A stretch of DNA of 64,000 bases from Tubulanus polymorphus. Taxonomy: Eukaryota > Animalia > Nemertea. The DNA is taken from the NCBI RefSeq assembly GCF_964204645.1, contig NC_134033.1:9122655-9186654 (forward strand), read 5' to 3'. The notes beneath the pieces are model-generated. The model had not been told where the DNA came from. It saw only the letters and a program-made list of their open reading frames with translations, and ran no database searches. Made by a program: the position numbers and the translations under genes. Below, one piece after another: positions 1 to 56,175 of this stretch (positions are counted from its first letter, which is position 1; the number at the start of each line of letters is the position of its first letter).

Positions 1-1
1 A

Positions 2-1240
2 TTTGATTGGAAGAAAAGAATCCTAGATATTGCAGATGATTCAGATATTGGTTACTTCTTCGTTGTAGATTTAGAATACCCTGAAAATATTAAATTCAAA
101 TCTAGAAATCTAGCATATTGTCCCGAACATAAAACTGTTAAACATGAAGAATTATCAAATTATCAAAAAAGAATTAAACCTGATAATCATATTCATACTG
201 AAAAGTTAATGGTAACTCAAGAAGATAAATATAATTACGTTGTGCATTATAGAATGTTGAAGTTTTATTTGAGACAAGGAATGATATTAAAAAAAGTACA
301 TAGATATATTTCATTCAGTCAATCTAAATGGTTAGAAAAATATATAGATTTTAATACTACACAGAGAACTAAATCTAAAACTGATTTTGAGAAGGATTTT
401 TTTAAGTTAATGAACAATGCGTTCTATGGTAAGACTTGTGAAAATATTAGAAATAGAAATGATATTGAGTTAGTTAGTAATGGTAAAAGGATAAGGCATT
501 TACAATCATATCCTAAGTTTATAGGTAACAGAATATTTGATGAAAATTTAGCAGCAGTTAAGATGAGAAGAACTTCAATGAAATTTAATAAACCAATTTA
601 TGTTGGAGCTGCAGTTTTAGAAATTTCAAAGCTATTGATGTATGAATTCTATTATAATGTATTACAACCACTTTTTGGAGAAAAACATATAGAAATATTA
701 TATTTTGATACAGATTCTTACATATTAAAGATAAAAACTGATAACATAACTGATGATTTAAAAACATTAAAACATCATTTTGATTTCAGTAACTATCCTA
801 AAGATCATGAATTGTTTAGCAATGATAATAAAAACGTTCCTGGGAAGTTTAAGGATGAATTAGGTGGTGAAGAAATGATAGAGTTCATTGGTATTAGATC
901 TAAAATGTATAGTTATAAAACTAAAACTCATGAAGCTAAAAAGTTAAAAGGAATTACCAAAAGCGTTGTTGAAAAGAATATTCATTTCAAAGATTACATC
1001 AATTGTATATTTAATGAAGAAGTTAGAAAACATAAGATGAAATGTTTAAGATCTGAAGATCATGAAATGTTTATTGAAGAAATTGAAAAGATAAGTCTAA
1101 ACCCATTTGATGATAAAAGATATATTTTAGATGATGGAATTCATACAGTTGCTTATGGTTGCAATTTAGATGAATACTTAAAATTTAAAAGAGAAGAAAC
1201 AAAAGAAAATGAGATTATGAAAAGGATTCTAGCGTGTTAA
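2..1240 (+). CDS. Protein-primed family B DNA polymerase, C-terminal part; intein-free allele
   Basis: Frame is open from base 2. Motif B KLMNNAFYGKT, motif C YFDTDS (701-718), GKFKDE, RSKMY, KLKGI and DDKR are typical of Polinton pPolB. Confidence 0.95.
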   Translation, partial: FDWKKRILDIADDSDIGYFFVVDLEYPENIKFKSRNLAYCPEHKTVKHEELSNYQKRIKPDNHIHTEKLMVTQEDKYNYVVHYRMLKFYLRQGMILKKVHRYISFSQSKWLEKYIDFNTTQRTKSKTDFEKDFFKLMNNAFYGKTCENIRNRNDIELVSNGKRIRHLQSYPKFIGNRIFDENLAAVKMRRTSMKFNKPIYVGAAVLEISKLLMYEFYYNVLQPLFGEKHIEILYFDTDSYILKIKTDNITDDLKTLKHHFDFSNYPKDHELFSNDNKNVPGKFKDELGGEEMIEFIGIRSKMYSYKTKTHEAKKLKGITKSVVEKNIHFKDYINCIFNEEVRKHKMKCLRSEDHEMFIEEIEKISLNPFDDKRYILDDGIHTVAYGCNLDEYLKFKREETKENEIMKRILAC

Positions 1241-1268
1241 TCAATTTCAATAAAAATTTGTATAATAA

Positions 1269-1610
1269 ATGGAGAGTAAACAAGTACACAGTGAATTCTT
1301 AGATAGAATTAAAGATACTTCAAGCGTCAAATCTGTAGATTATAAATTTAAAAAACTAACTGAGTTAACAATTCACAAGAAATATTTAATTACTAACATT
1401 GAAACAATTACTAATAAATATGGAGATAAATTAGTAATTCATTTAGAATATGAAGGATTAAAAGGAAATAAATATAAATTCAGAACTTATTTACCAGATA
1501 GATTTCATAGATTATCAAGTGAAGATCTAGAAGAATTATATTCTGGTGATTTCTATTTCATATATAAAGGTAAGAATGAAAAAGGGCACCATGAAATAGA
1601 TTTCGAATAA
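1269..1610 (+). CDS. Small viral protein, possibly OB-fold/SSB-like
   Basis: Intact 113-aa ORF with TAAATG start directly after PolB; beta-rich pattern (KYLITNIETITNKYGDKLVIHL...YLPDRF). The fold is inference. Confidence 0.55.
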   Translation: MESKQVHSEFLDRIKDTSSVKSVDYKFKKLTELTIHKKYLITNIETITNKYGDKLVIHLEYEGLKGNKYKFRTYLPDRFHRLSSEDLEELYSGDFYFIYKGKNEKGHHEIDFE

Positions 1611-1627
1611 GAAAATATGTAAAATAA

Positions 1628-2386
1628 ATGGTGGAATTAAAAGAATATAGAATATTTGTTGATTCTAGAAAACTTACAAATTATAAATCTCATAATTTAT
1701 TAGTACAATTAGATAGAGAATTTAAGAATTGTGTTGATTTAAAATTAGTAAATATAAGTTTATGTAATTCTTTTTACAATGTATCGGATAAGTCTATTGA
1801 ACATAGAGTCTTTTTAATTCATGATAGAAATAAAAGTAAATGGTTTCATCTTTATCTTAAACCAGGATTATATAATTTAGAAACATTAGCTCAAGAAATT
1901 AATAGAAGTGCTCGGTTGAAAATGGGTGCATCTGCTGGATTTGGATTAAGACTGATTAAAAGTGATAGTTCTGATAAAATAAGAATAAAATTAGGTAATG
2001 AAGATCAACATCAATTTCTAGTTAAAAAACCCTTAGCTAAAATTTTAGGAATAACCCCAGATGTAAGGATACGCAATGCTGATGCTACACCAAATATAAT
2101 GCCTTTTACACATTTTTATATTTATTGCAATTTAATCGATCCTACAAAAACATTCGAAGCAACTAAAGATATAACTTGTAATTCTGGTTTACTAAACATT
2201 TTACCATTGAAGAATGTTAAAGAATTTGGAACGCAAATAAATTATAATTTAACAGAATGTGATTTCAAACCATGCACTCCTCGTTTTAATAATTTTAGAT
2301 TAGAAATTAGAAATCATAATGGATACTTAATTGATTTAAATAATTTCCCTGTAATTTATGAATTAGTTATAAGATGTAGAGAGTAA
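1628..2386 (+). CDS. Minor capsid (penton-like, single jelly-roll) protein
   Basis: IFVDSR...LKLVNISLCNSFYNV N-terminus and YIYCNLI...LEIRNHNGYLIDLNN C-terminus resemble Polinton/PLV pentons; homologue at 55383. Confidence 0.75.
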   Translation: MVELKEYRIFVDSRKLTNYKSHNLLVQLDREFKNCVDLKLVNISLCNSFYNVSDKSIEHRVFLIHDRNKSKWFHLYLKPGLYNLETLAQEINRSARLKMGASAGFGLRLIKSDSSDKIRIKLGNEDQHQFLVKKPLAKILGITPDVRIRNADATPNIMPFTHFYIYCNLIDPTKTFEATKDITCNSGLLNILPLKNVKEFGTQINYNLTECDFKPCTPRFNNFRLEIRNHNGYLIDLNNFPVIYELVIRCRE

Positions 2387-2403
2387 TTTTTTTCACTATA
2401 TAA

Positions 2404-2745
2404 ATGAATATAACTGTTGGACCGAGTATATGTTTTGGGTTTGATTTTAAACATGGTAAAGAAATGAGAATTAAACTAAATGATGTAATTACTGATATAA
2501 AAAGTAAATCATTTAACAATGCGTCAATGATTAATAAAGAAAAGTATAATATAGAAAAAGTAATTGATTTAATTAAATCACCTTTAGAATATTATGAATT
2601 AAATGAAGATGGAATTATTGATGATATTAAAAACATATTATCCAAAATATATGATAATCATAAAACTAGTAATGAAATAAATGTTGAAATAATCATCACT
2701 AAGTTAACTAAATATTTTGATGATAGTAATTTTTTTGATAAATAA
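2404..2745 (+). CDS. Hypothetical viral protein
   Basis: TAAATG start; homologous to the N-terminal part of 56176-56745. Confidence 0.75.
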   Translation: MNITVGPSICFGFDFKHGKEMRIKLNDVITDIKSKSFNNASMINKEKYNIEKVIDLIKSPLEYYELNEDGIIDDIKNILSKIYDNHKTSNEINVEIIITKLTKYFDDSNFFDK

Positions 2746-2967
2746 ATGAGTGATAATAAGTGGATAATAACTGGATTATATAATGGCGCATTACTATCAG
2801 TTGGAACTGTTGGTTATTCAATGGTATTAAAAAAAGTATTCAAAATGGGAAGTGTTAATGTTGATAGATTTGATATCAATGATATTTTGAAATTAACGTT
2901 AGCAGTTACTTTATCTAATTTAACTATTGATTATTTGGAAAAACAAAAATATATTCCTCCCATATAA
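2746..2967 (+). CDS. Small predicted membrane protein
   Basis: Two hydrophobic segments; nearly identical to the C-terminal part of 56176-56745. Confidence 0.75.
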   Translation: MSDNKWIITGLYNGALLSVGTVGYSMVLKKVFKMGSVNVDRFDINDILKLTLAVTLSNLTIDYLEKQKYIPPI

Positions 2968-2991
2968 ATGCATAATTTTTTTGCTAAATAA

Positions 2992-3414
2992 ATGGCTTCT
3001 GCAATTATAACTATTATAGGATCGGCAATTGTTAACGCTTTAGCATTTACTGGTGGTGGTTATTTATTTAAACATATTGATAAAAATAGTTCATTAGGAG
3101 AACAAAGAAGACATAATTTAGCGTTAGAGAAATACAATAAAGCTGCAGAAGAATATAGAGAAAAGAGACAAAACTATATGGATTACATCAATAAAGAATT
3201 ATATGATCAGAAGATTTCACATAGAGATTTTCAATCAGTTGATGATGCAATGAGTTTATATAACGCAGTAACAAATAAAGAAAAATTACATCTATACAAA
3301 CCTAAATTATCAGATTATTATATCCCAAGTAAAGAACAACAGAAATATGAAATAATTTGGATTTTAGGTGGAACTGTTATTGTTATATTTGTTGCTTATA
3401 AATTTACTAATTAG
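2992..3414 (+). CDS. Predicted membrane protein with N- and C-terminal hydrophobic helices
   Basis: MASAIITIIGSAIVNALAFTGGGYLF and IIWILGGTVIVIFVAY; near-identical copy at 56770. Confidence 0.8.
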   Translation: MASAIITIIGSAIVNALAFTGGGYLFKHIDKNSSLGEQRRHNLALEKYNKAAEEYREKRQNYMDYINKELYDQKISHRDFQSVDDAMSLYNAVTNKEKLHLYKPKLSDYYIPSKEQQKYEIIWILGGTVIVIFVAYKFTN

Positions 3415-3433
3415 TAATTTTTTTTCTAAATAA

Positions 3434-3868
3434 ATGGAAGATAAAGTTGATAGTATTGATATTATTCCTCATGATATAAATAAAACTAAATTAAAAACAT
3501 ATTTAGAAAAACAAATATTAGAATTTGAAAGTGACTTAAAGATAAAAAAGAAAAAATATTTAAAAAGTAAAATTATATATTATTTGATTATAAGTGGTTC
3601 GGTTACAATTAGTTCTGTAATAACATTTCTAGCAATATTCAGCCCATTAACACCTTTAGCTATATCAATTGGTGTGTAAAGATTAAGTTCAAGTGTTTTA
3701 ACTGGTATAAGTTCAAAATTAAATATAAAAAGTAATAAAGAAAAAATAAAATCTAATATAAAAGAAATTAATAAATTAAAGAATACACTAGATTATATAA
3801 TAAGTTTAAATGGTCATATAACAGTTGAAGAACAAGATAAATTATTAAAAGAATTAATAAATTATTAA
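3434..3868 (+). pseudogene. Two-TM membrane protein with premature TAA (3677-3679)
   Basis: Colinear with the intact 144-aa ORF 57212-57646, which has TTA (Leu) at that codon. Confidence 0.85.
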
Positions 3869-3884
3869 TTTTTTAATTATATAA

Positions 3885-5267
3885 ATGGGGTTTCCAAAAG
3901 CTTTCCGATATAATAAATCAATTAAATATAATATTCCAGCAATAGATTTCAATAAAGATATTACATATAGAAATGAAGTTTTAGATTCATTAACTAATTT
4001 AGAAATTTATGTCACTGAAACTAATAATTTTAATGCAAAGATGGAAAATATATTTCATGTATATTTAATTAATTTTAAAAAATTGAAAGATGAAAAACAA
4101 TGGTTATTAAAATCTAATATGAAGTATTGGCAGAACCAATTAAATTTTGCTGTTTATTGTGCAACAACAGGATGTGGAATTAGTTGGAATGATCATTTGA
4201 ATAATTCTAAATATAAACTAATTCAAAGTTTATTTAGATTTCATACATACTTTCAAATCAGAATAATATTAAATGAATTAGAGTGTGCTTTACCAGGATC
4301 TAGATATTTTAAAGAATTAGATAATAATATTAATTTATCAAAGTTTTATAAAATTTGTAATGAATTTAATATAGATATAAATAATTCTGATTTTAGAACA
4401 AAAATTGGAACAATAAGATCACTTCCATGCCCTAGAAAGATTGCAGAATATTGTGCACTTCCCATACCATCTAATAGTTTTTATAATATCTATAATAATA
4501 AATTAGGTTATGGTAAAATAGAAACAAAGGATTTAGAAACATTAAATTTCAATAAATTACCAAAATTTTATGATAATTTAAAACAAGAAAACAATAATGG
4601 TTGGGTTTATTTTATTTTAGAAAATAGTGAAGGTTTTACTAAATCAGGTATAGAAAGAATAAATCAATCTATTAGAACTTATTTGATTTGTATTCTAGGA
4701 TCACAAGTTGAAACAAGATCACCGATAATTGGAAATTTGAATACATCATTCGATACACAAAAACAATTTAAAGTTTTATTTGAAGATTCAATTCATAATG
4801 ATAAAAATAGATCGATTCCAGAAAACATTATAAGATATCAAAATTATTTAGATAAATCACATATTAGATTAAATTATTGAATAGGCCCTAATCTATTAAT
4901 TATTTCTAATGATTTAGTATTGAAGATGGGAAATATAATTGGTTATAATAATCTAATTAAAACTGCAACAATAAATAATTCATTTGGATTGAATGATATA
5001 AATAAAAAGATTATTACTGCTCCAAAATTAATGGAAGGTGAAAAAAATAAAAAACATATTCAATCAACAGAAACTAAAACTAAGAATATTAAATTGGATA
5101 ATGATTCTAAAATAAAAGATTACAATACATCAGAAAATAATAGAACTGATAAAATTCAACATGATATAATTAAACTAAATGATGATAATAAATCCCATGA
5201 AAATACTAAATTAGCTATAACTTGTATAGGAATTGTAATCGGAGGAATATTATATTTTAAATTTTAA
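3885..5267 (+). pseudogene. Conserved ~460-aa viral protein with C-terminal TM; premature TGA (4878-4880)
   Basis: ORFs 3885-4880 and 4920-5267 are in frame and match the intact 57663-59051 (TGT, Cys, at that codon). Confidence 0.85.
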
Positions 5268-5283
5268 TTTTTTTATTATGTAA

Positions 5284-6876
5284 ATGGATGTAGAAGGTTG
5301 AGAAGATATTCCATTGGGTGACATGGGAAATAATAATGAAGGATATATTGATGATGATTGTAATGATGCAGAAACTAATATTGATAATGATGATGAATCA
5401 ACATATAATTCTAATTTAGCAGATAGTGGTTCTAAAGCCCCATCAACAGATGAATTTGATAGAAGAACTAGATCGAGAATACCTACTGAAAATTTAGACC
5501 CAGGTTTAAAAAAGGAAGATATATTGGATTTATATATAAGTTTCAAGATGTATTTAAAAAATCTGGATATAATATAAATGGTAGAGGCGCCAGACTTTTA
5601 GTACAAGAATTAAAATCTTTAGATGGTGAATATTATTATCATTTGAAAGATGATTATTATATTGATATCACTAATAAAAGGACAAGACGAAGTAAAATAT
5701 TAGCGGAATCAACTTTGGAAAATTTAGAAACATTTAGAATTAAGAAGAATAAGTATTAGTAATGAAATAACTGATGTTACACAAAAAGAAAGAGATGATA
5801 ATATAAGAGTATTTAGTCAAAAAATTGATGACTTATTTAAAATAATCGATGATAATCCAGAAACGGAAATGGAAGAGAATAGAGATCGATTAGATAAATT
5901 AAGATCTTCAACACCCGAAACATCTAGAAGAGATATTCAACAAATTGATAATGATTCAAATCAATTACAATTAGGAAAACATTTTGATAGCATGTTAGAT
6001 GCAATTCATTCATTTGACGAAGAGATGAATAGTATTTTAGATACACCCGGTACTGAAACTGGAATAAATCGAATACAATCTTTACTAGAAAAAGGATTAT
6101 TTGATTTAACTGATGATGAATTAGAAGCATTTCCTGAACAAGCACGTAGAGAAATTAAAGGTATGCAAGAATCAGCTGATAAAATTGCGCATGAAAAAAG
6201 TAAAAGAGATATTAAAATTAGATTTTTAGAAAAAGATAGAACTGATAAAAATAAAGAAATAGAACAATTAAAATTAGATAGAGATAATAAAGTTATTGAA
6301 GAAATTGAATTTAAAAAAAGAAATGCATATTTAGAAAAAGAAATTGATGATTTAGAATATAACATAGAATTACAAAAAGAAGAAATTAAATTATTATTAA
6401 AATCATATGATTATAATATTAATAGATTAAAAGTTATTTTCAAAGATTTGTTGATTAAACCAAATTCTGAAATATCATTAAAAGACAGAATAAAGTTATT
6501 ATTTAAATTAGAAGGAATAACAATTCTTTCAATTCTAACAGCTGTAACTATGGTATTTACAACAATTGGTTTAGCAATATCAAATGCTTTGAAATCTACT
6601 CCCACTCCCAATAAACCAGATAAACCCCCAGGTAATAATTCTATACAAGATAAAGTTAAAGATGGTTTAAAGAAATTAGCAAAATATTTATGGGAACTAT
6701 CTAAAAAATCTGCTGCAGCTTTACCAGGAGTTATTGCTTCAATTGTTGGTTTTATATTGAAATCTGCAGGTAATATTCTTAACTTTGCTGCTAAACATAT
6801 TATTTTATTTTTAATTACAGTTGTAAGTGCTATTATTTTTGGTTTAGTAAATATGATATCAAAAAATATCAAGTAA
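5284..6876 (+). pseudogene. Acidic / coiled-coil / multi-TM protein, disrupted
   Basis: TAAATG start MDVEG followed by TGA (GGA in the copy at 59068), then frameshifts; coiled coil and hydrophobic helices in 5869-6876. Confidence 0.8.
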
Positions 6877-6919
6877 ACCATGATATCAAAAAATAAATAA
6901 TTAATTTTTTGTTAAATAA

Positions 6920-8167
6920 ATGAGTGGGAGTTATATCAATCCTTCTAAGAATCATAGAATATCTAATGCTATTAAAGCAGAAAGATCACATCATATAATT
7001 ACTCATAACCCTTCAAATATTAATCCCGATGAAACTTTATACGTTAGAATCCCTCGATTAACACAAAATACTTTTTATGTTCCAAATAGTATTTATTTAT
7101 CAGCCGATATTAAAGTAATCGGTAATAATAATAATTATGTCGTTGATAATGTTGGAAGATATTTGATTAAAAAGTTAACAATAAAGATTGGTCCAGAAAC
7201 AGTTTTCTCATTAGATGATTATAATTTATTTATGCATTATAAAGATTTATGGTAAACTAAAGAAAATAGAAATAATATGATATTTCAAGGAATTCAATCA
7301 GAAAACCAAAATAAATTAAGATCAGAAGCGCATAATGCAATATTAACTAATGATGTAGATAAATTGATAAAAAGTATATATGGAAGTAAATATAAAATTC
7401 CATTAGACTTTGAATTGATAAATAATAATGCGCCTTTATATAAATACGCAATTCAAGAAGATATTATATTTGAGATAACATTTGCTCCTGTAAATGAAAT
7501 TGTATTATCTAGCGTTGTTAAAGATATGAGTTATAAATTATCGAATATATGTTTAGAATATGATACAGTAACTGATGAAAATATTTCAAGTATAATTCAA
7601 ACTCAATACAATCAAGGATTTTCATTATTATATGATTATATTGATAAATTTAAAACTGTAACTATTAATGCAAATGATGAAATAATTAATGAGAATATTA
7701 ACTTTCCTAGAAGATCTATTAAAGGTATATTAATATTTTTTACTATTGGAACGTATACTAATGGCGCAATAAATGTTGATAATTATTATAATCCTGAAAT
7801 AACAAAAGTAGAAATAACTATCGAAGGAATAGCAAATAAAATATTTTGTCAAGGAATGAGAATGATTGATCAATGGCCAGAAATTAGAAAACATTTTATG
7901 AATGAAAAAGTAAAATCATTTGAAAATTGTAACATTAATCAAATTGATTATTATACCGGTAATAAATATGCATTATGGTTAGATTTTAGAACAACAGAGG
8001 ATAACTTATTACATGGTTCTGGAAAAAAACTACAGAACACTAAAGATGGAATACAATTATTCATGACAAAGAAAAATGGAATCAAAAATTTTAAAATGCA
8101 CATTTATATTATATCTGACGCACAATTAAATATTATAAATTCACAATTAGATAGTGTTATGTATTAA
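6920..8167 (+). pseudogene. Major capsid protein (double jelly-roll), one nonsense codon at 7253-7255
   Basis: 415 codons, same length as 60549-61796; beta-rich pattern (LIKKLTIKIG, YKIPLDF, LSNICLEYD, ITKVEITIEG) and position next to integrase/ATPase. The fold is inference. Confidence 0.8.
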
Positions 8168-8199
8168 AATTTTAACTTTAATAAAAATATATATAATAA

Positions 8200-9129
8200 A
8201 TGGAAGGAGGTAAAGTATATAAACATATTCCATACATTGATACACATGAAAATAATGATGGTTTATATTATGTAATACCTTGTAATATAGCATTGATATT
8301 TGATCCTATTTTTAAAAATTATAAAACTAAACTGATAGAAATCGATAATAATAAAAGTGGTGTTGTTAATAATAGTGTAATTGATAATAATGTAATACCT
8401 ACTACATCTGTAATACCTACTACTACATCTGTAATACCTACTACACCTGTAATACCTACTACATCTGTAATACCCTCTACATCAAATAATATAATACCTT
8501 CTACATATAATAATGCAATAATATTAAATGTTAGTGAAAATAGAAATTATTGTGGTTATTGTAATGGTGAATTTTCAAACGCTCCATCAAATTGGAATAA
8601 ACATATGAATACAAATTCACATATTACTAATGTTATAGAACGTGTTGGTTTAAGAGAATTTATAGAACACCCATTTAGATATGTTACAAAGTTTGTTTCA
8701 AATAAAAAAGTAAATGGTAAAGAATTATATGAAGATTTTTTATTAGCAACACCTAATAAAGATGAATTAGATTTAACCGATGCTAATGAAATATTAGGAT
8801 CAAACACTGTAAATGAAATATTAGGAGCAAACACTAATAAAGATAATAATGAAAATGGTACCATACAGCACCCACATGGTGATATAGTTACAGGAAAGCG
8901 CATTGATAATAAAGATTCTATAAAACTTAAAGTAGAAAATAATGATAAATTTGATTGGATGAATAAGTTTAAAAATGAAACAACTATTGATGATTCGGTA
9001 AAAAAGGTGAAAAAGGTGAAAAAAAATTATAAAGATGTTGAAGAAGATTCGGTAGAGCATTTAAATATGTTGTTAGGGCCGTCTGATAGTGAAAGTGATT
9101 CAGAAATTAATTATCTAACACTCGAATAA
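8200..9129 (+). CDS. Accessory protein with VIPTTS repeats and a matrin/U1-type C2H2 zinc finger
   Basis: YCGYC...WNKHMNTNSH; tandem 18-21 bp repeats at about 8390-8500. Confidence 0.7.
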   Translation: MEGGKVYKHIPYIDTHENNDGLYYVIPCNIALIFDPIFKNYKTKLIEIDNNKSGVVNNSVIDNNVIPTTSVIPTTTSVIPTTPVIPTTSVIPSTSNNIIPSTYNNAIILNVSENRNYCGYCNGEFSNAPSNWNKHMNTNSHITNVIERVGLREFIEHPFRYVTKFVSNKKVNGKELYEDFLLATPNKDELDLTDANEILGSNTVNEILGANTNKDNNENGTIQHPHGDIVTGKRIDNKDSIKLKVENNDKFDWMNKFKNETTIDDSVKKVKKVKKNYKDVEEDSVEHLNMLLGPSDSESDSEINYLTLE

Positions 9130-9196
9130 TAAAGGTTGAAAATTGTATAAAATAATAGTAAATAAAAAAAGGGTTTTAATTATTTAAGGTACCTTA

Positions 9197-9265
9197 TAGG
9201 GTATCAGGTATTAGGGTATCAGGTATTAGGGTATCAGGTATTAGGGTATCAGGTATTAGGGTATC
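9197..9265. repeat. 15-bp tandem repeat (TAGGGTATCAGGTAT) x4.6
   Basis: Directly visible between convergent genes. Confidence 0.95.
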
Positions 9266-9287
9266 TAATACATAGGTATACAAATAG

Positions 9288-9899
9288 TTATTTTATAAAT
9301 TTATATTCATAGGGAAATTGTAATCTCAGTAATAATTTTGAACCTTTATTATTCTTTAATTTATTCATATATTCATCATGTAATTCAGGAGGTATAATTT
9401 GATTTTCTTCCAATGATTGTTGCATAGATTTTCTATCTTTGTTGTAGAATAAAACTAGAAATCTTATATTCTCTCTAAAAGCTTTCACAATTGAATTATA
9501 TTTCTGATTTAAAACCCAAGTTGTTATCCCAAAATGTCTTCCAGAGAAAGCTAAATAGCATAACTCACTTTCTCTAACTTTTGAATCATGTAAATCAGCG
9601 CAATCATCTATAATGAATAATGTATTTGATCCTTTATAAGTATCAATTGCTATTTTTATACAATTATCTAAATTTTCTTTTACTGTTTTAGGATCTAATA
9701 TAATAAACTTTTTTATCTTAACTATATCTCTATTATATGTTTTATTCATTTCATATGTAGGACAGAATAATATTATATTATCAAAATGATTCTTATAAAT
9801 AGTTTCTAACAAGTCTAATATGAAATGTGTTTTACCACAATTGGTTACTCCAGTTATTAACATATTATGTGGTTCAAATATAAATAAATCTTTATTCAT
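9288..9899 (-). CDS. A32/FtsK-HerA family genome-packaging ATPase
   Basis: Walker A GVTNCGKT, Walker B LFIIDD, SGRH motif, downstream Q sensor and FRENI. Confidence 0.93.
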   Translation of the reverse strand: MNKDLFIFEPHNMLITGVTNCGKTHFILDLLETIYKNHFDNIILFCPTYEMNKTYNRDIVKIKKFIILDPKTVKENLDNCIKIAIDTYKGSNTLFIIDDCADLHDSKVRESELCYLAFSGRHFGITTWVLNQKYNSIVKAFRENIRFLVLFYNKDRKSMQQSLEENQIIPPELHDEYMNKLKNNKGSKLLLRLQFPYEYKFIK

Positions 9900-10980
9900 T
9901 TATTCTTTTAATTTTACTAGATAAAATCCATTCATTAAATTTATCATCATATCCTTTATATTTCACCAAAGAATACTTTTTTCCTTTAAGAGTTTTTGTT
10001 TTCAATACCTTTTCTATTTTGTATTCTATTTCATCTGGATTTGGTACTAATGATAATTCTTGTTCATAAAAATAACCTAATATTTCTTCATCTTTTAAAT
10101 CAAACAATTTATAAACAAATGGTTTAGTTAATATTATCTTTTTAATTTTAAATATTTCTTCAGTAAAATTAGGGGTATAACCTTTATAAAATGTTTTTCG
10201 ATATTTAGAAATTCTAACATGTTGTCCTATTTTAAATTTAGGTTCTCCGAAATCATGTGTAACAAATGCTCCATATAAATTATTCCAAACTATTTCTGAA
10301 TTTTCTTCTTTTCTAGCTTGTATAGGTTTCATATTTATAGAACTATGTTTAGAATTATTATAACCTTTAACTAAATCATCTAACACATCGATATATTTAT
10401 ATGTTTCATTAGCGGTGAAATATTTCCACATTCTAGTTTTCAATGTTTTATTAAATCTTTCTATAACAGATGCTTTTTTATCTGAATGTGTTGAAAAATA
10501 TTCTACATCGTTATCAGATAATAGTTTTTTAAAATGTTTGTTATAAAATTCCTTACCTTCATCAAATTGTATCTTATCTGGAATAGCTTCTTTAAATATA
10601 GATTTAAAAGCATTTGTTACTTCTATACCAGTTTTATTTTTAATCGGGATACTCCATGCGTATCTACTGAATATATCTATAACATTTAGTATCCAAAAAT
10701 ATCCTTTGTTATATTCTTCTAAGTTTTTCATGTCAATTAAATCAGCTTGCCATTGTTGGTCAATATATGAAACCATTACTTTTCTTGTTAAATATTTTTT
10801 ATCCATCTTTTTATGAATTTGATATGTGGGTTGATTTTGTAACCATGATTTTAATTCACTATATTTTATATTGCTATTATCAGATTTAATTTTATTCCAT
10901 AATTCTGAAACGTTAGAATATGATACTTCACTTTCTGGGTTATAATATAAATCTCTTAAATATTGTTCTTTTTTCATCAT
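9892..10980 (-). CDS. Retroviral-like (rve) integrase with C-terminal chromodomain, intact
   Basis: WQADLID, IDIFSRYAW, QFDEGKEF, IERFNKTLK (DDE); YKIEKVLK...LVKYKGYDDKFNEWI chromodomain. Confidence 0.95.
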   Translation of the reverse strand: MMKKEQYLRDLYYNPESEVSYSNVSELWNKIKSDNSNIKYSELKSWLQNQPTYQIHKKMDKKYLTRKVMVSYIDQQWQADLIDMKNLEEYNKGYFWILNVIDIFSRYAWSIPIKNKTGIEVTNAFKSIFKEAIPDKIQFDEGKEFYNKHFKKLLSDNDVEYFSTHSDKKASVIERFNKTLKTRMWKYFTANETYKYIDVLDDLVKGYNNSKHSSINMKPIQARKEENSEIVWNNLYGAFVTHDFGEPKFKIGQHVRISKYRKTFYKGYTPNFTEEIFKIKKIILTKPFVYKLFDLKDEEILGYFYEQELSLVPNPDEIEYKIEKVLKTKTLKGKKYSLVKYKGYDDKFNEWILSSKIKRINE

Positions 10981-10983
10981 ATT

Positions 10984-11343
10984 TTAATCCATTAATAATA
11001 TTTTAGATTTATTTTCATTTGATTTATTTTCTGGTGGTTTATTGTCTGTACACGGATAACAAAGTTTCCGATCATCTTTATCGTCAGATTTGAATTTTGA
11101 TTTATATATTACACCGGATAATATAATAACTGTTACTAATCCAATTGTAATATATAATTTATAATTACTTCCAGCATTAGAAGAATTAGATGGATTATTA
11201 TTTGAATCAATATCAGGTGATTCATTTATATCAGTTAATTTCTTTTTCTTAGCTTTTTTTAATTCTGAAGATCTTTTACCTAATTCTCTTGCCCATTTAA
11301 TTTGTTTCTCGGATCTAGCCTTTTTATTAACTCCATCACTCAT
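10984..11343 (-). CDS. Basic N-terminus, single-TM protein
   Basis: RSEKQIKWARELGKR; TM segment LYITIGLVTVIILSGVIY; TAAATG start. Confidence 0.7.
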   Translation of the reverse strand: MSDGVNKKARSEKQIKWARELGKRSSELKKAKKKKLTDINESPDIDSNNNPSNSSNAGSNYKLYITIGLVTVIILSGVIYKSKFKSDDKDDRKLCYPCTDNKPPENKSNENKSKILLMD

Positions 11344-11938
11344 TTATTTTAGTTAATTTTTGTTCTGATTCATTTTCTGTTTCGATGTTTTGTTGTAGTA
11401 CATCTGTTTCGTTCTTACCTGATTTATATTCCATAGGTTTGATATTCGAAAATGTTATAACTCCAGTAGAAATCAATGTCATAACCGATCCTAATTGAAA
11501 TGAAGCATATCCAACCCATTTTTGTAATTCAGTCATAACTAAATAGTCATTTTTCAAATCATTATATAATTTATTTTCATCATCAATTGGTATTAACTGG
11601 TTACATAACTTAGAATAACATTTGACAATACCATTAGAAATAGAATCATTTATTCTAGCTAATCGAGCTTCTTCATAAATCTTAAAATATTTTATTACTT
11701 TATCGGGTTTCATAGCATCTAATTCTTGAAAAGTAATAGTCTTAGTTAAAAACTCTTTAGTTTTTCCACCGGCAATCAATAGTTCTAGATGATGCTTACA
11801 ATATAAATAGTATTCATAATCTATATTGTTATTAACTTGAATAGAATTAGTTACAACTGTATCTTTATTATCACTTATACCCAAATCATCTAATGTTTTT
11901 TCAATATCAATACTATTCTTATTAGATTTCTTTGACAT
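11336..11938 (-). CDS. Conserved hypothetical viral protein with a hydrophobic C-terminal helix
   Basis: TAAATG start; homologue at 63733-64000 (IEKTLDDLGI, YEYYLYCKH). Confidence 0.75.
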   Translation of the reverse strand: MSKKSNKNSIDIEKTLDDLGISDNKDTVVTNSIQVNNNIDYEYYLYCKHHLELLIAGGKTKEFLTKTITFQELDAMKPDKVIKYFKIYEEARLARINDSISNGIVKCYSKLCNQLIPIDDENKLYNDLKNDYLVMTELQKWVGYASFQLGSVMTLISTGVITFSNIKPMEYKSGKNETDVLQQNIETENESEQKLTKINE

Positions 11939-12366
11939 TTATATTAGAGGAAAAAAGCAAAAAAAAATATTATAAGTATTCTTCAAATGATACTAGTATC
12001 TCTTTAGGTTAATACTAAATTGACTAGGGACTAGGTTAGTTAAAGTTAAAGAATTTCTATTCAAATCTATTCAAAATCTATTCAATCTAATGTCAATTAG
12101 AATTACCAAAAGAAAATATTGAAAATATAATAGAATTGACTAGCTAGTTGAAGTTATTGTTTTTTAATTATATTTTATTTAAATTAGGATTTAATATCTC
12201 ACTACTATTGTCTATCTATAGGAGCGGTAACTATAACTGTCCAGATAAGTCATTTCGGATTCTCGATAATAAATCCTAAAACTGAAAATAAATTCAAAGA
12301 AACGACTGGTGGAAATCTTATTTCATAAACACATATATTTATTATGTAAATTTTAGCGATCGATAA

Positions 12367-12557
12367 TAGAACAATGGAGAACAATAGAAATGCGGTCCAA
12401 TCGGACCGGTTATTGCGCAATACTTAGTTAACAGTAAACAATCAATACAGAACAACCGCCGCCATTAACAACGATCAATAGTAGAACAATGGAGAACAAT
12501 AGAAATGCGGTCCAATCGGACCGGTTATTGCGCAATACTTAGTTAACAGTAAACAAT
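12367..12557. repeat. Perfect 76-bp direct repeat (12367-12442, 12482-12557) with internal palindromes
   Basis: Directly visible. Confidence 0.9.
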
Positions 12558-12625
12558 ACAATATTAAAACAGATATATACAATCGAGATTACATTTTTGA
12601 TATCTAAGACCTTCAGTATTATAAC

Positions 12626-13354
12626 TTATAATTTTGTCCAGAATTCTTTAATTACTGGATTGTTTCCAATCATTTCTTCAATTTCTGGTAAATGTCTTAC
12701 TACTTCACTAAATGCTAATCCTAATATTTTGAATTTTTCATATTTTATTAATCTACCTACTCTTCTCAGTTTTCTTTCAAAACCGGCACTGATATCTATG
12801 TTCTTTTTAACCCACAGTCCCCAAGAAATCCCCTCAGTTTCTTTATCAAACATTGAAAACCCTATATTTAGATAACCCCCGAAAATGATGTGGTCCCATA
12901 GGTGATTTGCTTTTCTATTTAATACGGTTTTATAACTTTTTTTTAAGATATCAGTAATTTCAGCAAATGAAATAACTTCTACACTTTGTATTTCCGGAAA
13001 GTTTAAATGTCCTGTGTCAATGATTAATTTAAATTTTAAAAACTCGTTCAACTCTTCTCCACTCATTTTCTTAGTTTTCGATTCTTTGAGCCCCAACAGC
13101 AATTTGAGTCGCGTTGCTGGTAATTTTGGTAATTGTAGTTCGCGCGGTAATTGTTTATTATGTATTACATCACTCAGAATTTTCACCATTTCTTGATGAT
13201 AGTCCAAATGTTCTTGTAATGTTTGTGAAGTTTGTTCGTCAATTACGAGAGTTTCATCCTCCATTTCTATTGATTCCTGAGTTTCACTATCCAGTAGCAA
13301 TCGTTCCTCATCCGTTGGTTGGCTTAGAATTTCTGGTTGATCTTTGTGTTCCAT
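12626..13354 (-). CDS. Hypothetical accessory protein
   Basis: 242-aa ORF with TAAAATG start; no family recognised. Confidence 0.6.
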   Translation of the reverse strand: MEHKDQPEILSQPTDEERLLLDSETQESIEMEDETLVIDEQTSQTLQEHLDYHQEMVKILSDVIHNKQLPRELQLPKLPATRLKLLLGLKESKTKKMSGEELNEFLKFKLIIDTGHLNFPEIQSVEVISFAEITDILKKSYKTVLNRKANHLWDHIIFGGYLNIGFSMFDKETEGISWGLWVKKNIDISAGFERKLRRVGRLIKYEKFKILGLAFSEVVRHLPEIEEMIGNNPVIKEFWTKL

Positions 13355-13702
13355 TTTAATCTAAAAGATATCGTGAAAATGAATTACTATACTTAAATAT
13401 GTTTAAAGGTTTCCCTACTTCATAATAACTACAAAAAACGGTACTTACATTTAGATTTAGAACTGTAAACTGTGTTTTGAGAGAGAATATCCAATACGTA
13501 CCATGTATGTGAAAGTTGATTTCTAACTGCCGACGTGGCGCACGTTCGACCAAACTAATTACTTCTGCACAGATGTTCTTTATGATGAAGTTAATTAATT
13601 CTTTAGAATTGAAAACAAGATATATTTGGCAACATATGTTTTAGTAGTAAGCAAAAGCTATGTATTATATACATACAAAGCTCAAATAGAATTGCCAGCT
13701 TT

Positions 13703-14387
13703 CTAACCACTGATCAAAACCTCAGAATGCGGTTGATTCTGTGAAATACTATTCCATAATTCAACAAATGTCTTTGCTTTATCCAGTTGATCTAAATATA
13801 ACTGTAAATCTAGTTTATTGGATTTAATAATGTTTTCCTTCTTTTCTAAAGGTCTTAGATTCTTCCAATTCCAAATAAGTTTTTTATTGTATTCATCATT
13901 CATGTCAAATTTAGAAATCGGCAACACATGATCAATATGAAAGTATTCACCATAATTATCTATATTCATTTTATCGTCGAATTGATATATTATCCATGAT
14001 TTGAGAAATTCATCTGAACAACCCAATAGATTAGATAGTGTTTCTGAATGTGTTTCTTTGTTGAATAATTGTGTTAATCTAGATCTTAAGCATTGTTTCA
14101 ATCTAAAATTAAGATCTGTTTGATATCTTTCTCTCATATATTCTGTCATATAATCATTATAAGCTTCTCTATTATCTTCTCGGTATTGTTTGGTATATAG
14201 TTTAAAACAAGTTTTACAGCAATATTGAAAACCATCTTTGCTAATCTTACGCTTACTAAATTCTGTTAAAGCTAATTTATCTAATTCACATTTAAAACAC
14301 TTCTTGTAGTATATGTTTATAACGCCAGTGTTATTTGTAATATTGATAATGGTTGTTCTAATGGTAATGTGGTTGTTCTGGTTCCAT
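13703..14387 (-). CDS. HNH/endonuclease VII-like nuclease of the type common in large DNA viruses, with N-terminal Cys motifs; frameshift near the start
   Basis: LLGCS...FHIDHVLPIS...WKNLRPLEKKENIIKSNK. The frame stays open upstream of 14149 (KKCFKC...CCKTC). TAAATG at 14387 is out of frame. Confidence 0.75.
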
Positions 14388-14466
14388 TTATTATACGTAT
14401 TTTTTTACTAAATTGGTTAATAATTTTAGAATCCTCTTCCATTTCTTCGACCAACGTCATCCTTTT

Positions 14467-14718: not shown

Positions 14719-14929
14719 TTTAATACTATATTTTTTATTAAAATTGATTTTAGAAGTTCAATGATTTATATCATGCATTATTTCAATCACACTTTACTAA
14801 CACTTTTAATGTTTAAAAATCTAACTCACACAAATATAAATATTGAAATAATGTTGTAAATATATCTATATATCTATTCTATAAGAGCTTACACTTTTAA
14901 ATGTTATTCATTTACATGAATATTTTAAG

Positions 14930-56159: not shown

Positions 56160-56175
56160 TTTTTTCATTATATAA

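Follow-up and report, generated by a model that had tools for sequence, protein, structure and literature searches.

Most genes of the two endogenous polintoviruses in the analysed window (the whole stretch of 64,000 nucleotides) are preceded by a two-part start signal of the poxvirus type, consisting of a T-run or an A-run, a short spacer and TAAATG, so that their transcription is likely of the virus type and not driven by ordinary host promoters. The motifs are very probably the promoters of such a system. In our preferred reading, with a probability of about 0.4, these conserved signals are read by the polymerase of a co-infecting pox-like (Pokkesviricetes-type) virus, with help predicted from the element's own VLTF3-like factor.

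Judging from their sequences, both elements are decayed polintoviruses, and the genes for protein-primed PolB (pPolB), rve integrase, A32 ATPase, capsid and penton are found across the two:

1..14900, no strand assigned, copy 1, endogenous polintovirus, cut by the window start, right end approximate
47980..64000, no strand assigned, copy 2, endogenous polintovirus, runs off the window end, left end approximate

The copies are 77-91% identical to each other, with GC contents of 0.23-0.30 (copy 1) and 0.22-0.29 (copy 2) versus 0.35-0.51 for the host DNA. Copy 1 has in-frame stops at 3677, 4878 and 5299, where sense codons are present in copy 2; in copy 2 several ORFs make up PolB, the capsid ORF is shortened at the 3' side, and the integrase exists only as fragments. 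Raw DNA reads with the same species label indicate multiple copies of the family in the genome (~110-500 reads per orientation in most element bins and 60-75 in two, against ~27 in a single-copy-like bin). The named closest relatives of a neighbouring Ty3/gypsy polyprotein (37-53% identity, unnamed EukProt entries set aside) are all metazoan, which is compatible with an animal host. The only marine link is provided by short contigs from one marine metagenome.

The following genes were identified:

6920..8167, + strand, major capsid protein (MCP), copy 1, in two ORFs (6920-7255 and 7277-8167)
1628..2386, + strand, penton (minor capsid) protein, copy 1, assigned by structure matches; copy 2 version at 55383-56159
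9288..9899, - strand, A32-like packaging ATPase (Pfam Pox_A32, E 6e-13); copy 2 version at 62948-63556 (+)
9892..10980, - strand, rve integrase with chromodomain (Pfam rve 1.8e-9, Chromo 8e-5), start not TAAATG
48849..52944, + strand, protein-primed PolB, copy 2, in several ORFs (Pfam DNA_pol_B_2 2.2e-8), start not TAAATG
54604..55314, - strand, zf236, zinc-finger protein (zf-U1 / C2H2; Pfam zf-U1 4.4e-7)
53006..54600, - strand, VLTF3-like gene, copy 2, broken (Pfam PF04947 on 53006-53320), start ATAATATATG, not TAAATG

The MCP ORF of copy 2 (60549-61685) matches Pfam Capsid_N with an E value of 0.009; the protein has 676 homologues, many on Mb-scale contigs and one named from a bivalve, and its look-alike clusters in the Atlas are in majority viral, some with Capsid_N or Capsid_NCLDV. 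The predicted penton model (pLDDT 75.5) aligns in VIA-align with PBCV-1 capsid chains (Z 12.9 and 12.2), the mavirus penton (Z 10.1) and Sputnik (Z 8.3), and a comparison with BFVD gives 60 hits with E<=1e-3, some of them to minor capsid and penton proteins. Within PolB of copy 2 lies an intein that includes a LAGLIDADG domain (51645-52490; Pfam LAGLIDADG_3, Intein_splicing), and the C-terminal part of the copy 1 PolB is located at 2-1240. The original prediction had noted that no RNA polymerase gene is visible, and this is upheld by Pfam: a scan of 27 ORFs from the window and of 150 of the 161 ORFs of relatives gave no match to any RNA polymerase or capping-enzyme family.

The T-run form (T-class) was read at the 16 starts for which it had been claimed, given below with their positions. 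TAAATG is present at 16/16, and a T5+ run lies within 20 nt upstream at 15 of them, the exception being 56770, with an interrupted run (TTATTTT). Orthologues are those of 12 close metagenomic relatives (L001-L012, GC 20-44%, 9 of the 12 loci at 20-31%); lines without further comment are plain sequence readings.

2385..2406, + strand, before g189a (start 2404), TAA-T7-N7-TAAATG
2727..2748, + strand, before g189b (start 2746), inside the last codons of g189a; absent in copy 2, where the ORFs are fused
2973..2994, + strand, before g140TM (start 2992)
3415..3436, + strand, before g144 (start 3434)
3866..3887, + strand, before g462 (start 3885)
5265..5286, + strand, before g530 (5284-6876, broken; start 5284)
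6901..6922, + strand, before MCP, copy 1 (start 6920); same form in L001-L003 and L007-L009
11936..11969, - strand, before g200 (start 11938), T9 and T6 runs then TAAATG; L001 and L003 orthologues also T-class
47994..48015, + strand, before zf228, first gene of copy 2 (start 48013), no gene upstream
55312..55340, - strand, before zf236 (start 55314), T5
55362..55385, + strand, before the copy 2 penton, T7 run then TATAAATAATG, initiator offset by 3 nt (additional to the 16)
56157..56178, + strand, before g189 in fused form, copy 2 (start 56176)
56751..56772, + strand, before g140TM, copy 2 (start 56770), TAAATG with broken T-run
57193..57214, + strand, before g144, copy 2 (start 57212)
57644..57665, + strand, before g462, copy 2 (start 57663), T5
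59049..59070, + strand, before g530, copy 2 (start 59068), T10
60530..60551, + strand, before MCP, copy 2 (start 60549)

The T-run begins 15-17 nt ahead of the A of ATG, is mostly preceded by TAA, and is separated from TAAATG by 5-7 nt (the consensus of 10 window starts is TAATTTTTTT..TAaATAAATG). The information is restricted to positions -20..-1, with 9.3 and 8.7 bits versus 2-3 bits per 10-nt bin farther upstream. Between 2300 and 8200 of copy 1, the sense strand has 8 T6+ runs, of which 7 are located at gene starts. The split g189a/g189b form, together with its site, is also found in L001, L004 and L006. A splice acceptor was considered for the T-run and rejected, with no AG between run and ATG at 2385-2406, 2727-2748, 2973-2994 and 3415-3436 (the first four + strand sites, which were those checked).

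At six more gene starts the run before TAAATG consists of A instead of T (A-class: A-run, spacer, TAAATG):

1245..1271, + strand, before g113 (start 1269)
1604..1630, + strand, before the penton, copy 1 (start 1628); L001 orthologue also A-class
8176..8202, + strand, before g309zf (start 8200); L003 orthologue also A-class
9897..9923, - strand, before the A32-like ATPase (start 9899), orthologue starts compared
11341..11367, - strand, before g119 (start 11343); L001 and L003 orthologues also A-class
62924..62950, + strand, before the ATPase, copy 2 (start 62948)

TAAATG with an A-rich upstream part is found at 4/5 orthologous ATPase starts (62948, L001, L003, L009), and the fifth, in L011, has an A-run without TAAATG. 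From the sequences compared, the class appears to be mostly kept between orthologues among the nearest relatives: in the window, L001 and L003, MCP, g462, g200 and g144 have the T-run throughout and ATPase, g119 and g309zf the A-run throughout, and the penton has an A-run in both copy 1 and L001. The class is not strict, as MCP has an A-run in L006 and L010-L012, and a T-run is present at the copy 2 penton and the L001 orthologue of g113, where copy 1 has A-runs. PolB, the integrase, the VLTF3-like gene, g242, HNH and zf83 start with something other than TAAATG. The A-run class and these genes point to a temporal cascade and not to one 'late' signal. The original prediction had spoken of a structural block, but the block is not purely structural: zinc-finger genes also have the T-run, and the copy 1 penton and the ATPase have the A-run.

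The proposed likeness to vaccinia late promoters was borne out point for point, with TAAAT(G) over the start, a T-rich core, a spacer of 5-7 and a T at the 10th nucleotide. In the promoter passages of PMC11980589, vaccinia late promoters have TAAAT followed by G across the start codon and a conserved T, flanked by Ts, at the 10th nucleotide upstream, and intermediate promoters have TAAA with an A-preferring upstream part; a gap of 5-7 bp between T-rich core and TAAAT is given in an excerpt of PMC5294985. By these accounts the T-run layout resembles vaccinia late promoters and the A-run layout the intermediate ones. Upstream of TAAAT, T is found at the 10th nucleotide in 36/36 T-class starts (35 at the 9th, 34 at the 11th) and A at positions 11-15 in 15-19 of the 19 A-class starts, values that are partly circular, the classes having been defined by T/A counts. 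Divergent gene pairs have one common intergenic region of ~30 bp, and in one such pair, in L009, a single run is the T-run of one gene and the A-run of the other. The confinement of the signals to -20..-1, with the initiator abutting the ATG, is unlike the ~24-30 bp from TATA to start of Pol II, a misfit that the authors of PMC7163114, in the part dealing with ASFV late promoters, argue for ASFV as well. More distant relatives have clade-specific start-proximal motifs, one of which, of a TATATAG type and 3-8 nt ahead of the start codon, recalls the ASFV late initiator TA(+1)TA.

Against 200 dinucleotide-preserving shuffles, the motif T5+-N4-10-TAAATG was observed 9 times in copy 1 (1.17 expected, shuffle maximum 4), 10 times in copy 2 (1.67 expected, maximum 6) and once in 33 kb of host DNA (0.58 expected, chance level), and with a leading TAA 7, 5 and 0 times (0.10, 0.15 and 0.02 expected). 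The excess in the elements, 6-8x for the composite motif and 33-70x with the leading TAA, is large relative to an AT-matched background, the comparison suggested with the original prediction; because of the identity of the copies, counts are not independent between them, and the 8-10 sites within one copy are. TAAATG occurs in 65/79 start windows versus 167/5612 background windows and TTTTTT in 30/79 versus 223/5612, orthologous starts not being independent. In L001-L012, TAAATG starts 38/47 ORFs of at least 100 aa (81%) versus 4/116 ORFs of 25-50 aa (3%), and since this holds across 20-44% GC, composition does not explain the motif. In L004-L006 (36-44% GC) it starts 9/14 listed ORFs, a listing that mixes in ORFs of at least 70 aa. 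Base -3 is T in 63/66 AAATG-bearing starts versus 204/540 elsewhere, homology-anchored MCP starts have TAAATG in 12/12 close relatives and 19/46 overall, and a T- or A-run accompanies 58/63 start TAAATGs versus 56/141 non-start ones.

The shuffle, ORF-length, GC and MCP-start controls already contradict the reading that the motif has no function and is a by-product of 77% A+T, TAA stops beside ATG and ORF calling, which we regard as extremely improbable. In its favour, TAAATG alone exceeds the shuffles just 1.4-1.6x (47 vs 30.0 and 47 vs 34.0), and any ATG directly preceded by an in-frame TAA is by necessity the first of its ORF; however, the composite motif is 6-70x over shuffles and is retained at 36-44% GC. 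AT content and stop/start overlap, which had been named as possible causes, are contradicted by the shuffles and by the TAA doubling as the previous stop at just 1/10 + strand TAAATG starts of copy 1 (2746 only). It is also unlikely that polycistronic RNA arises from one or several upstream promoters of the host type, with the T-run acting as a terminator of the gene before it, or the T-run/TAAATG serving the following ATG as a signal for re-initiation or as context. This would agree with the co-directional block, where each T-run directly follows the previous stop codon (TAA-T6-8) and contains T5NT, with intergenic spaces of only 16-43 nt (ORF coordinates), and with A at -3..-1 as a favourable translation context. 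Poly-T is a termination determinant in poxvirus early genes. It is one in ASFV too, according to an excerpt of PMC7163114. However, the composite motif also stands before genes without a gene upstream (48013, 11938-, 55314- and the L001 dNK), only a part of the sites contain AATAAA, and no T-run follows the stops of PolB, g113 and MCP, after which an A-class gene comes next, so the run belongs to the downstream start.

Profile matches show that the elements also carry a gene of the VLTF3 late-transcription-factor family, which the original prediction had overlooked. The PF04947 match (E 2.2e-5, 24.7 bits) is just under the cut-off of 25, and the gene, in frame with the terminal TAA of zf236 next upstream, is interrupted twice, by a stop in its frame (54498-54496) and by a host-repeat insertion of ~1.1 kb (about 53295-54415), the repeat being present also at 44400-45570. 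The presence of an own factor opens another reading, nearly as likely as the pox-like helper, in which an autonomous polintovirus uses this factor (perhaps with zinc-finger proteins) to recognise the motifs and guide a host polymerase, likeliest Pol II together with TBP, inside the nucleus; in that case the pox likeness would stem from a VLTF3-dependent late system inherited from a common ancestor and not from helper mimicry. In its favour, a profile including the window fragment retrieves true VLTF3 proteins (64 proteins, PF04947 in 43/49 scanned, many at 100-169 bits), and three other clades, represented by L020, L023 and L050, have VLTF3-like genes too, the one in L050 scoring above the Pfam cut-off. 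VLTF3 is already in print for one polintovirus subgroup (PMC11131425, in a passage citing Krupovic and Koonin 2016), and mriyaviruses, with VLTF3 and no RNA polymerase, are inferred to be nuclear and to use host Pol II (PMC11253617). One title in the reference list of PMC5294985 concerns the targeting of intermediate and late promoter elements of vaccinia by host TBP. The lack of TAAATG at PolB, the integrase and the VLTF3-like gene fits host-driven early genes that start a self-encoded late programme; the integrase chromodomain and the multi-copy family also favour autonomy, and the Bcl-2 homologue encoded by the related L020 suits a free-standing animal virus. On the other hand, all detectable information lies <=20 nt from the ATG, and a metazoan Pol II placed by these elements would start ~25-30 nt downstream, within the ORF, whereas N-termini are conserved from the first ATG and MCP alignments of close relatives begin at residue 1-3. 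Without polymerase slippage, a start in TAAAT would leave 0-3 nt of leader, and slippage is documented, in the excerpts of PMC11980589 and PMC7163114, only for viral polymerases. At the position that the VLTF3-like gene occupies in copy 2, copy 1 has none.

In the preferred reading, the polymerase of the co-infecting pox-like virus would read both the T-run and the A-run signals, assisted, as predicted, by the VLTF3-like factor. Transcription would start inside TAAAT, and since this leaves no templated leader, a poly(A) head would be needed, formed by polymerase slippage as in poxviruses. PolB, the integrase and the VLTF3-like gene would be expressed before the A-run genes, and the T-run genes last, with integrated copies silent until the helper infects, in a provirophage-like manner. 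By analogy, dependence on such a helper, possibly an undiscovered one, is plausible. A link between polintoviruses and entomopoxviruses, to which the original prediction referred, is indeed reported, with polinton-like viruses inside entomopoxvirus occlusion bodies (excerpt of PMC11296320), and endogenous virophage clades are described, in part of 10.1101/2025.10.09.676808, as differing in GC and promoter motif and being reactivated only if the motif matches the giant virus. Against a helper, the capsid family is widespread on large animal-type contigs and every clade sampled has some start-proximal motif; if all clades had a helper, a large number of animal giant viruses would have to await discovery. 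To our knowledge, poxviruses are known from insects and vertebrates only. The motif is missing here at PolB, the integrase and the VLTF3-like gene, unlike in classical virophages, where, as far as is known, every gene bears the late motif of the helper. In favour of a pox-like helper, the TAAATG clade comprises the most AT-rich contigs sampled, and entomopoxviruses are similarly AT-rich.

The two AT-rich stretches of the window (GC 0.22–0.30), separated by DNA of 0.35–0.51 GC, can be identified as copies of one polintovirus (Maverick/Polinton) family, and copy 1 and copy 2 show 77–91% identity to each other. The main features are:

1 to ~14,900: copy 1 of the polintovirus element
9892–10980, minus strand: rve integrase with a chromodomain (Pfam rve, E 1.8e-9; Chromo, E 8e-5)
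16900–21500, minus strand: Ty3/gypsy retrotransposon (RVT_1, E 1e-34; RNase H, integrase C-terminal domain and aspartic protease; 46–51% GC)
~47,980 to 64,000: copy 2 of the polintovirus element
51645–52490, plus strand: LAGLIDADG intein within copy 2 PolB (Pfam LAGLIDADG_3, E 4.8e-5; Intein_splicing, E 6.5e-5)
53006–53320, minus strand: match to Pfam Pox_VLTF3 in copy 2 (E 2.2e-5; 24.7 bits, just missing the cut-off of 25)

Besides the integrase, the family encodes a protein-primed PolB (Pfam DNA_pol_B_2, E 2.2e-8 and 5.6e-5 on copy 2 ORFs), whose C-terminal part is found in copy 1 at 78–79% DNA identity to copy 2, an A32-like packaging ATPase (Pfam Pox_A32, E 6e-13), and an MCP with a weak Pfam Capsid_N match (E 0.009) and Atlas look-alikes. 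The MCP has 676 homologues at E ≤ 0.001, of which the nearest (76% identity) are on small contigs and many of ~40% identity are on Mb-scale contigs; one carries a species name, that of the bivalve Mactra antiquata. The penton model (pLDDT 75.5) matches in fold the PBCV-1 capsid chains (Z 12.9 and 12.2), the mavirus penton (Z 10.1) and Sputnik (Z 8.3), and gives 60 matches at E ≤ 1e-3 in BFVD, including minor capsid and penton proteins. The rest of the gene set consists of several small membrane-type proteins, zinc-finger proteins (zf-U1), and an HNH nuclease, the ORF of which is the sole match in the PHROGs scan (endonuclease VII). The two largest proteins without assigned function contain membrane segments. 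The model of one ORF, g462 (pLDDT 64.4), has no BFVD match at E ≤ 0.001 and reaches at best Z 4.3 against solved chains; profiles of MCP, penton and g462 gave nothing below E 0.03 among solved-structure sequences, and scanning the MCP and its alignment against viral contigs found no relative. No family of maturation protease (adenain-like cysteine) was found in the Pfam and PHROGs scans, in which several ORFs remained without a match.

Both copies are decayed. The reading frames of copy 1 are interrupted by stops at 3677, 4878 and 5299, positions that are sense codons in copy 2, and its capsid gene is split between two ORFs; copy 2 has a PolB in pieces, a fragmented integrase, and a capsid ORF lacking some of its 3' end. 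The intein is present in copy 2 only, copy 1 being uninterrupted there through the conserved ...ILYFDTDSY... polymerase motif. In raw DNA reads from a run of the same species label, most bins of the element attract ~110–500 reads per orientation (60–75 in two bins), against ~27 in the one single-copy-like bin, which indicates a multi-copy family; these reads are mostly 90–99% alike rather than 99%. Each copy is cut by an end of the window, and the best inverted local score between copy 1's right end and copy 2's left end is 30, which is not significant. The integrase and ATPase genes of copy 2 lie downstream of the capsid gene and share its strand, as they do in L001, one of the closest metagenomic loci, whereas in copy 1 and in another close locus, L003, this block is inverted and stands behind an extra zinc-finger gene (9288–11938 versus 62005–63556 in the window).

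All 16 starts listed in the original prediction are indeed TAAATG (16/16), and the T-run described there is nearly as regular: five or more Ts lie close upstream at 15 of the 16, the run being interrupted at 56770. The element of the window reads TAATTTTTTT..TAaATAAATG, with the T-run starting 15–17 nt 5' of the A of the ATG and a spacer of 5–7 nt to TAAATG. The information is all within the last 20 nt (9.3 + 8.7 bits), and the five 10-nt bins further 5' are noise (2–3 bits). Between 2300 and 8200 in copy 1, 7 of the 8 sense-strand runs of at least six Ts are these sites. Measured against 200 dinucleotide-preserving shuffles, the composite motif is in excess in both copies (observed versus expected, 9 versus 1.17 in copy 1 and 10 versus 1.67 in copy 2; with a leading TAA, 7 versus 0.10 and 5 versus 0.15, respectively), while the 33 kb of host DNA is at chance (1 versus 0.58, and 0 versus 0.02 with the leading TAA). 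TAAATG by itself is merely 1.4–1.6-fold enriched, so the signal is the combination and its position, not the hexamer.

The motif is shared by relatives, which were collected as 80 metagenomic loci with capsid-protein relatives; the closest 12 (L001–L012) have a capsid identity of 51–76% and a contig GC of 0.20–0.44. In these 12, TAAATG starts 38 of 47 ORFs of at least 100 aa versus 4 of 116 ORFs of 25–50 aa, the same comparison in more distant loci gives 19/135 and 22/139 versus 21/457 and 15/554, and none of the 14 ORFs in the host part of the window starts in this way; orthologous sites inflate such start-motif counts, and the p-values of the k-mer comparison at starts are overstated for that reason. 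Capsid starts fixed by homology, independently of ORF calling, are TAAATG in 12/12 close loci and in 19/46 loci overall. Three of the close loci with 36–44% GC (L004–L006) have TAAATG at 9 of 14 listed ORFs, in a listing that mixes ORFs of at least 70 aa. The base 5' of AAATG is T at 63 of 66 curated starts versus 204 of 540 places elsewhere, and this T is therefore unexplained by a plain A-rich translation context. The original prediction had named AT content and stop/start overlap as what might explain TAAATG instead; composition is ruled out as the cause by the shuffles and the short-ORF control, and an overlap of stop and start is seen at only 1 of 10 sites. A splice acceptor does not fit, as the interval from T-run to ATG has no AG at the four plus-strand sites checked, and neither does a poly(A) signal, since AATAAA is present in some sites only and the motif also precedes first genes.

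The elements fall into two classes, according to whether the run upstream of TAAATG is of T (T class) or of A (A class). TAAATG was found at 63 of 79 curated starts (29 in the window, with 22 TAAATG, and 50 in L001–L012). These 63 are T-rich 4–13 nt upstream in 36 cases, A-rich 10–22 nt upstream in 19, both in 3, and neither in 5; among TAAATGs away from starts, 85 of 141 have neither run. All 36 starts of the T class have T as the 10th nucleotide before TAAAT, and the A class has A at 11–15 nt upstream in 15–19 of 19 and then, at position 9, T in 16/19, figures which are partly circular because the classes were set by base counts. In the nearest relatives a given gene mostly keeps its class: in the window, L001 and L003, the capsid gene and the ORFs g462, g200 and g144 have the T-run, and the ATPase gene and the ORFs g119 and g309zf have the A-run, which is also found at the penton gene of copy 1 and L001. 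The exceptions are the capsid gene of L006 and L010–L012 (A-run), the copy 2 penton gene (T-run, with the initiator shifted by 3 nt), and the orthologue of the ORF g113 (T-run in L001, A-run in the window). In divergent gene pairs, an intergenic space of ~30 bp carries both initiators, and in L007–L009 one and the same run is the T-run for one gene and the A-run for the other. The starts of PolB, the integrase, the VLTF3-like gene, the HNH nuclease, and the ORFs g242 and zf83 are without TAAATG. One T-class site (2727–2748) separates two genes in copy 1, as it does in L001, L004 and L006; in copy 2 (56500–56530) this site is absent, and the two ORFs are fused into g189, of 189 aa.

As to transcription genes, the original prediction had reported no RNA polymerase, and this stands: neither RNA polymerase nor capping enzyme, VLTF1 or VLTF2 families were detected by Pfam in 27 ORFs of the window, or in 150 of the 161 relatives' ORFs of at least 110 aa that lack a capsid, ATPase, integrase or PolB match. 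It had overlooked, however, the VLTF3-like late-transcription-factor gene of copy 2. This gene, whose start is most likely the ATG at 54600, is broken by an in-frame stop and by the insertion of a host repeat of ~1.1 kb; the 104-aa VLTF3-like fragment alone found nothing in a homologue search, and the N-terminal pieces have no Pfam match of their own. Intact ORFs of 165–182 aa with the same Pfam match are present in three other clades (L020, 6e-4; L023, 3.6e-5; L050, 5.5e-8), and that of L050 lies above the Pfam cut-off. A search of 1.84 billion proteins with a profile built from these three ORFs and the fragment of the window retrieved 64, and PF04947 is present in 43 of the 49 scanned matches, many at 100–169 bits and some beside A2L- or TFIIB-type zinc ribbons, so that homology to the VLTF3 family is sound. 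The zinc-finger ORF just upstream, zf236, has its terminal TAA in the frame of the VLTF3-like gene, and the two could possibly represent one longer, stop-broken fused gene starting at the T-class site 55314. A VLTF3 in a subgroup of polintoviruses has already been published (PMC11131425), and VLTF3 is also named in gene-map legends of PMC8502044 and 10.64898/2026.06.19.733378.

The inserted host repeat (53287–54416) has a counterpart in host DNA (44400–45570), 93–95% identical, and is highly repeated in the genome by read depth. Raw reads bridge the insertion site in the VLTF3-like gene (103 reads), so copies without the insertion exist in that species; 120 reads join 44407 to 45571, so that both places also occur as empty sites.

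The two classes closely follow what is described for vaccinia. Its late promoter contains TAAAT, typically followed by a G overlapping the start codon, with a conserved T at the 10th nucleotide upstream and less conserved Ts around it, and its intermediate promoter contains TAAA and prefers A upstream (PMC11980589); 5–7 bp separate the T-containing core from TAAAT (PMC5294985). As far as the descriptions in these two papers go, the T class agrees with each of the late points (TAAAT plus G over the ATG, T core, spacer of 5–7, T at the 10th position), and the A class with the intermediate description, its A-run being found 11–15 nt upstream of TAAAT versus 15–19 nt in vaccinia, i.e. ~4 nt closer. 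Both forms stand directly at the ORF start, here as in vaccinia. The comparison is with published consensus descriptions of poxvirus promoters. Post-replicative transcripts of poxviruses begin within TAAAT, bear a non-templated poly(A) head at the 5' end, and are made by a viral multisubunit RNA polymerase working with VLTF factors; such a start would be predicted here as well. In contrast to the loose 20-bp T-rich core of vaccinia, the T-run here is short and sharply placed (6–8 T, mostly after TAA), and the signals are on a ~20 kb integrating polintovirus without RNA polymerase.

The late promoters of ASFV are likewise bipartite and AT-rich, with an upstream motif 4–12 bp from a TA(+1)TA initiator, a median leader of 9 nt, termination at poly-T and a polymerase prone to slip when it starts, and the authors note that such tight spacing misfits a Pol II pre-initiation complex (PMC7163114, in the sections on these promoters). 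The window elements use TAAAT, unlike the TATA of ASFV; the relatives L020 and L023 have TATATAG 3–8 nt before the ATG and a TTTTC element upstream.

As small integrating capsid-encoding elements without a polymerase, the copies resemble virophages and provirophages (mavirus with CroV, Cafeteria EMALEs, Tetraselmis PLVs), which carry a giant-virus late promoter on their genes, are reactivated only by the matching helper, and differ between clades in GC and motif (10.1101/2025.10.09.676808, as far as its text covers them). The hosts of those elements are protists, and their helpers are known Mimiviridae-type viruses with other motifs, whereas here the host looks animal, the motif is poxviral, some genes are without it, and the helper is hypothetical. 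A figure legend in the same preprint shows VLTF3 in Tetraselmis PLV gene maps, and this group includes free-living viruses as well as ones reactivated by a giant virus. The report of polintoviruses associated with entomopoxviruses, to which the original prediction had referred, does exist: polinton-like viruses in entomopoxvirus occlusion bodies are animal-associated and have been proposed as poxvirus hyperparasites, with one relative integrated in an insect (Barth et al. 2024, PMC11296320). Set beside the window by description only, their capsids are highly divergent and two are without detectable integrase, and the main text of that paper has 0 occurrences of 'promoter', 'TAAAT' or 'motif'. 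The mriyaviruses share with the elements VLTF3, an A32 ATPase, a double-jelly-roll capsid and the lack of a polymerase, and they have been inferred to depend on the host nucleus; unlike the elements they are protist viruses of 35–45 kb without pPolB and without integrase (PMC11253617, with 0 occurrences of 'promoter'). The gene set is otherwise that of the Mavericks/Polintons (Polintoviricetes, adintoviruses) of animals, with pPolB, rve integrase, a predicted double-jelly-roll-type capsid, penton, A32-like ATPase, ~20 kb and many copies; it differs by the VLTF3-like gene, which is known only for a subgroup (PMC11131425), and by the absence of a recognised protease in the ORFs scanned.

We consider that the 20-nt elements would be promoters of a virus-type system, with a probability of roughly 85%. 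Such elements are found at the starts of genes on either strand, among them first genes and divergent pairs, they are kept in relatives with a twofold difference in GC, and their classes mostly follow genes and copy a known promoter grammar, all of which argues for a promoter function. The T-run may in addition terminate the preceding gene, but termination is excluded as its main function, because the run tracks the class of the downstream gene and also precedes first genes. A search for RNA runs containing the element found none, and one run guessed to be RNA (X9) gave only 18–21-nt matches.

Which polymerase would read such promoters is less certain. That a helper virus supplies it, as originally predicted, is a serious possibility at somewhat under even odds. 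The likeness to poxviruses is specific (initiator over the ATG, T at –10, spacer, A-run variant), elements confined to –20..–1 without a templated leader call for a slipping viral polymerase, the clade-specific motifs mirror those of the endogenous Cafeteria virophages (10.1101/2025.10.09.676808, in the parts on these elements), and the PLVs of entomopoxvirus occlusion bodies (PMC11296320, by its description) offer a direct animal precedent. Alternatively, the host polymerase could express PolB, the integrase and the VLTF3-like factor, and the factor would then open the TAAATG genes, an account only slightly less likely than the helper. The replication genes are indeed without the motif, the family carries its own VLTF3-like factor and is very widespread in animal-type contigs, a helper for these elements is not known, and the scheme parallels what has been inferred for polymerase-less viruses bearing VLTF3 (PMC11253617). 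The factor itself does not discriminate between the two, because the Tetraselmis PLVs with VLTF3 include both free-living and giant-virus-reactivated ones (10.1101/2025.10.09.676808, in the text on this group). Dependence on a helper could also be taken further: a polintovirus clade endogenous in aquatic animals would consist of provirophages of undiscovered pox-like (Pokkesviricetes) viruses. These provirophages would combine promoters of the poxvirus intermediate and late types with a VLTF3 paralogue that serves for hijacking, and would fire only with the helper polymerase. We think this doubtful, though it deserves mention; if it were true, each of the motifs of the relatives (TAAATG, TATATAG, AATAAAATG) would be the mark of a separate helper lineage not yet seen, and could serve as bait for it.

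In protists, the dependence of virophages and inducible antiviral defence both have their molecular basis in promoters that small integrating viruses share with giant viruses. Such promoter matching is known already, and to our knowledge nothing comparable has been shown in animals. The poxvirus form on animal-type polintoviruses, with its two classes and the VLTF3-like gene, appears to be new: in the main texts of the openly available literature searched, we found nothing linking polintons or virophages with TAAATG. The polinton promoter literature found concerns mostly protist systems and giant viruses, with none on animal-polinton promoters, and no uniform start-proximal promoter grammar turned up in it for Mavericks/Polintons. 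Here the whole gene set of an animal-type endogenous polintovirus would carry both poxvirus post-replicative promoter forms, together with a VLTF3-family factor and no polymerase. Should a helper be the reader of these signals, there would be provirophage-like elements in animals and a pox-like virus still to be discovered in this host; if the host polymerase and the element's own factor do so, poxvirus late-transcription grammar predates poxviruses and goes back to polinton-like ancestors, which would bear on the origin of Nucleocytoviricota. On either reading, the 20-nt element is a simple testable handle on the long-standing question of Maverick/Polinton expression.

More distant relatives have other start-proximal motifs. 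L020 and L023 (48% GC) show ATTTTCY-N6-9-TATATAG-N3-8-ATG, L058 and L027–L031 show TTTAAA(G)ATTCTC-N10-14-AATAAAATG, L050 has TTATAAAAAATG, and L017, L039, L041 and L049 have plain (A)ATAAATG or ATTAAATG. In the first three cases a conserved bipartite motif specific to the clade lies no more than ~35 nt from the ATG (the TATATAG, TTTAAAGATTCTC and TTATAAAAAATG types). With each distant clade having its own motif, start-proximal virus-type promoters may be general in this Maverick/Polinton group, a trait so far undescribed.

Several accessory genes are found in the relatives. A dNK gene is present in L001 (10340–10981, minus strand; Pfam, 1.7e-31), where a T-class TAAATG site precedes it, and in L006 (2895–3377, minus strand; 8.3e-31), and an auxiliary nucleotide-metabolism gene of this kind is unusual for a ~20 kb element. 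More distant relatives encode a Bcl-2 family protein (L020, 2448–2861, plus strand; 2.3e-18) and a Bro-N protein (L044, 638–1465, plus strand; 4.8e-25), both accessory genes of animal-virus type. Capsid fragments (cluster of P0047, the only cluster with a name) are filed in public databases under several Bartonella sp. isolates on contigs of 0.5–1.6 kb, and are probably host or virus DNA contaminating those assemblies.

In copy 1, g309zf and the ATPase gene converge on an intergenic space that contains a perfect 15-bp tandem repeat (TAGGGTATCAGGTAT, 4.6 copies, 9197–9265), which might act as an origin, as a terminator or as an array of binding sites. In the DNA between the copies, the named nearest relatives of the gypsy polyprotein, EukProt entries without names aside, are all metazoan, at 37–53% identity only (pseudoscorpion, bivalves, sea cucumber, flatworms, nematode, fishes, abalone, spider), which fits an animal host. 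A (TA)107 microsatellite is located inside the retrotransposon at 20674–20888. Satellites are also present in this middle (host) DNA, and one of ~154 bp forms two blocks at 32141–34628, in a duplicated segment of ~1.9 kb (31619–32575 / 33506–34618).
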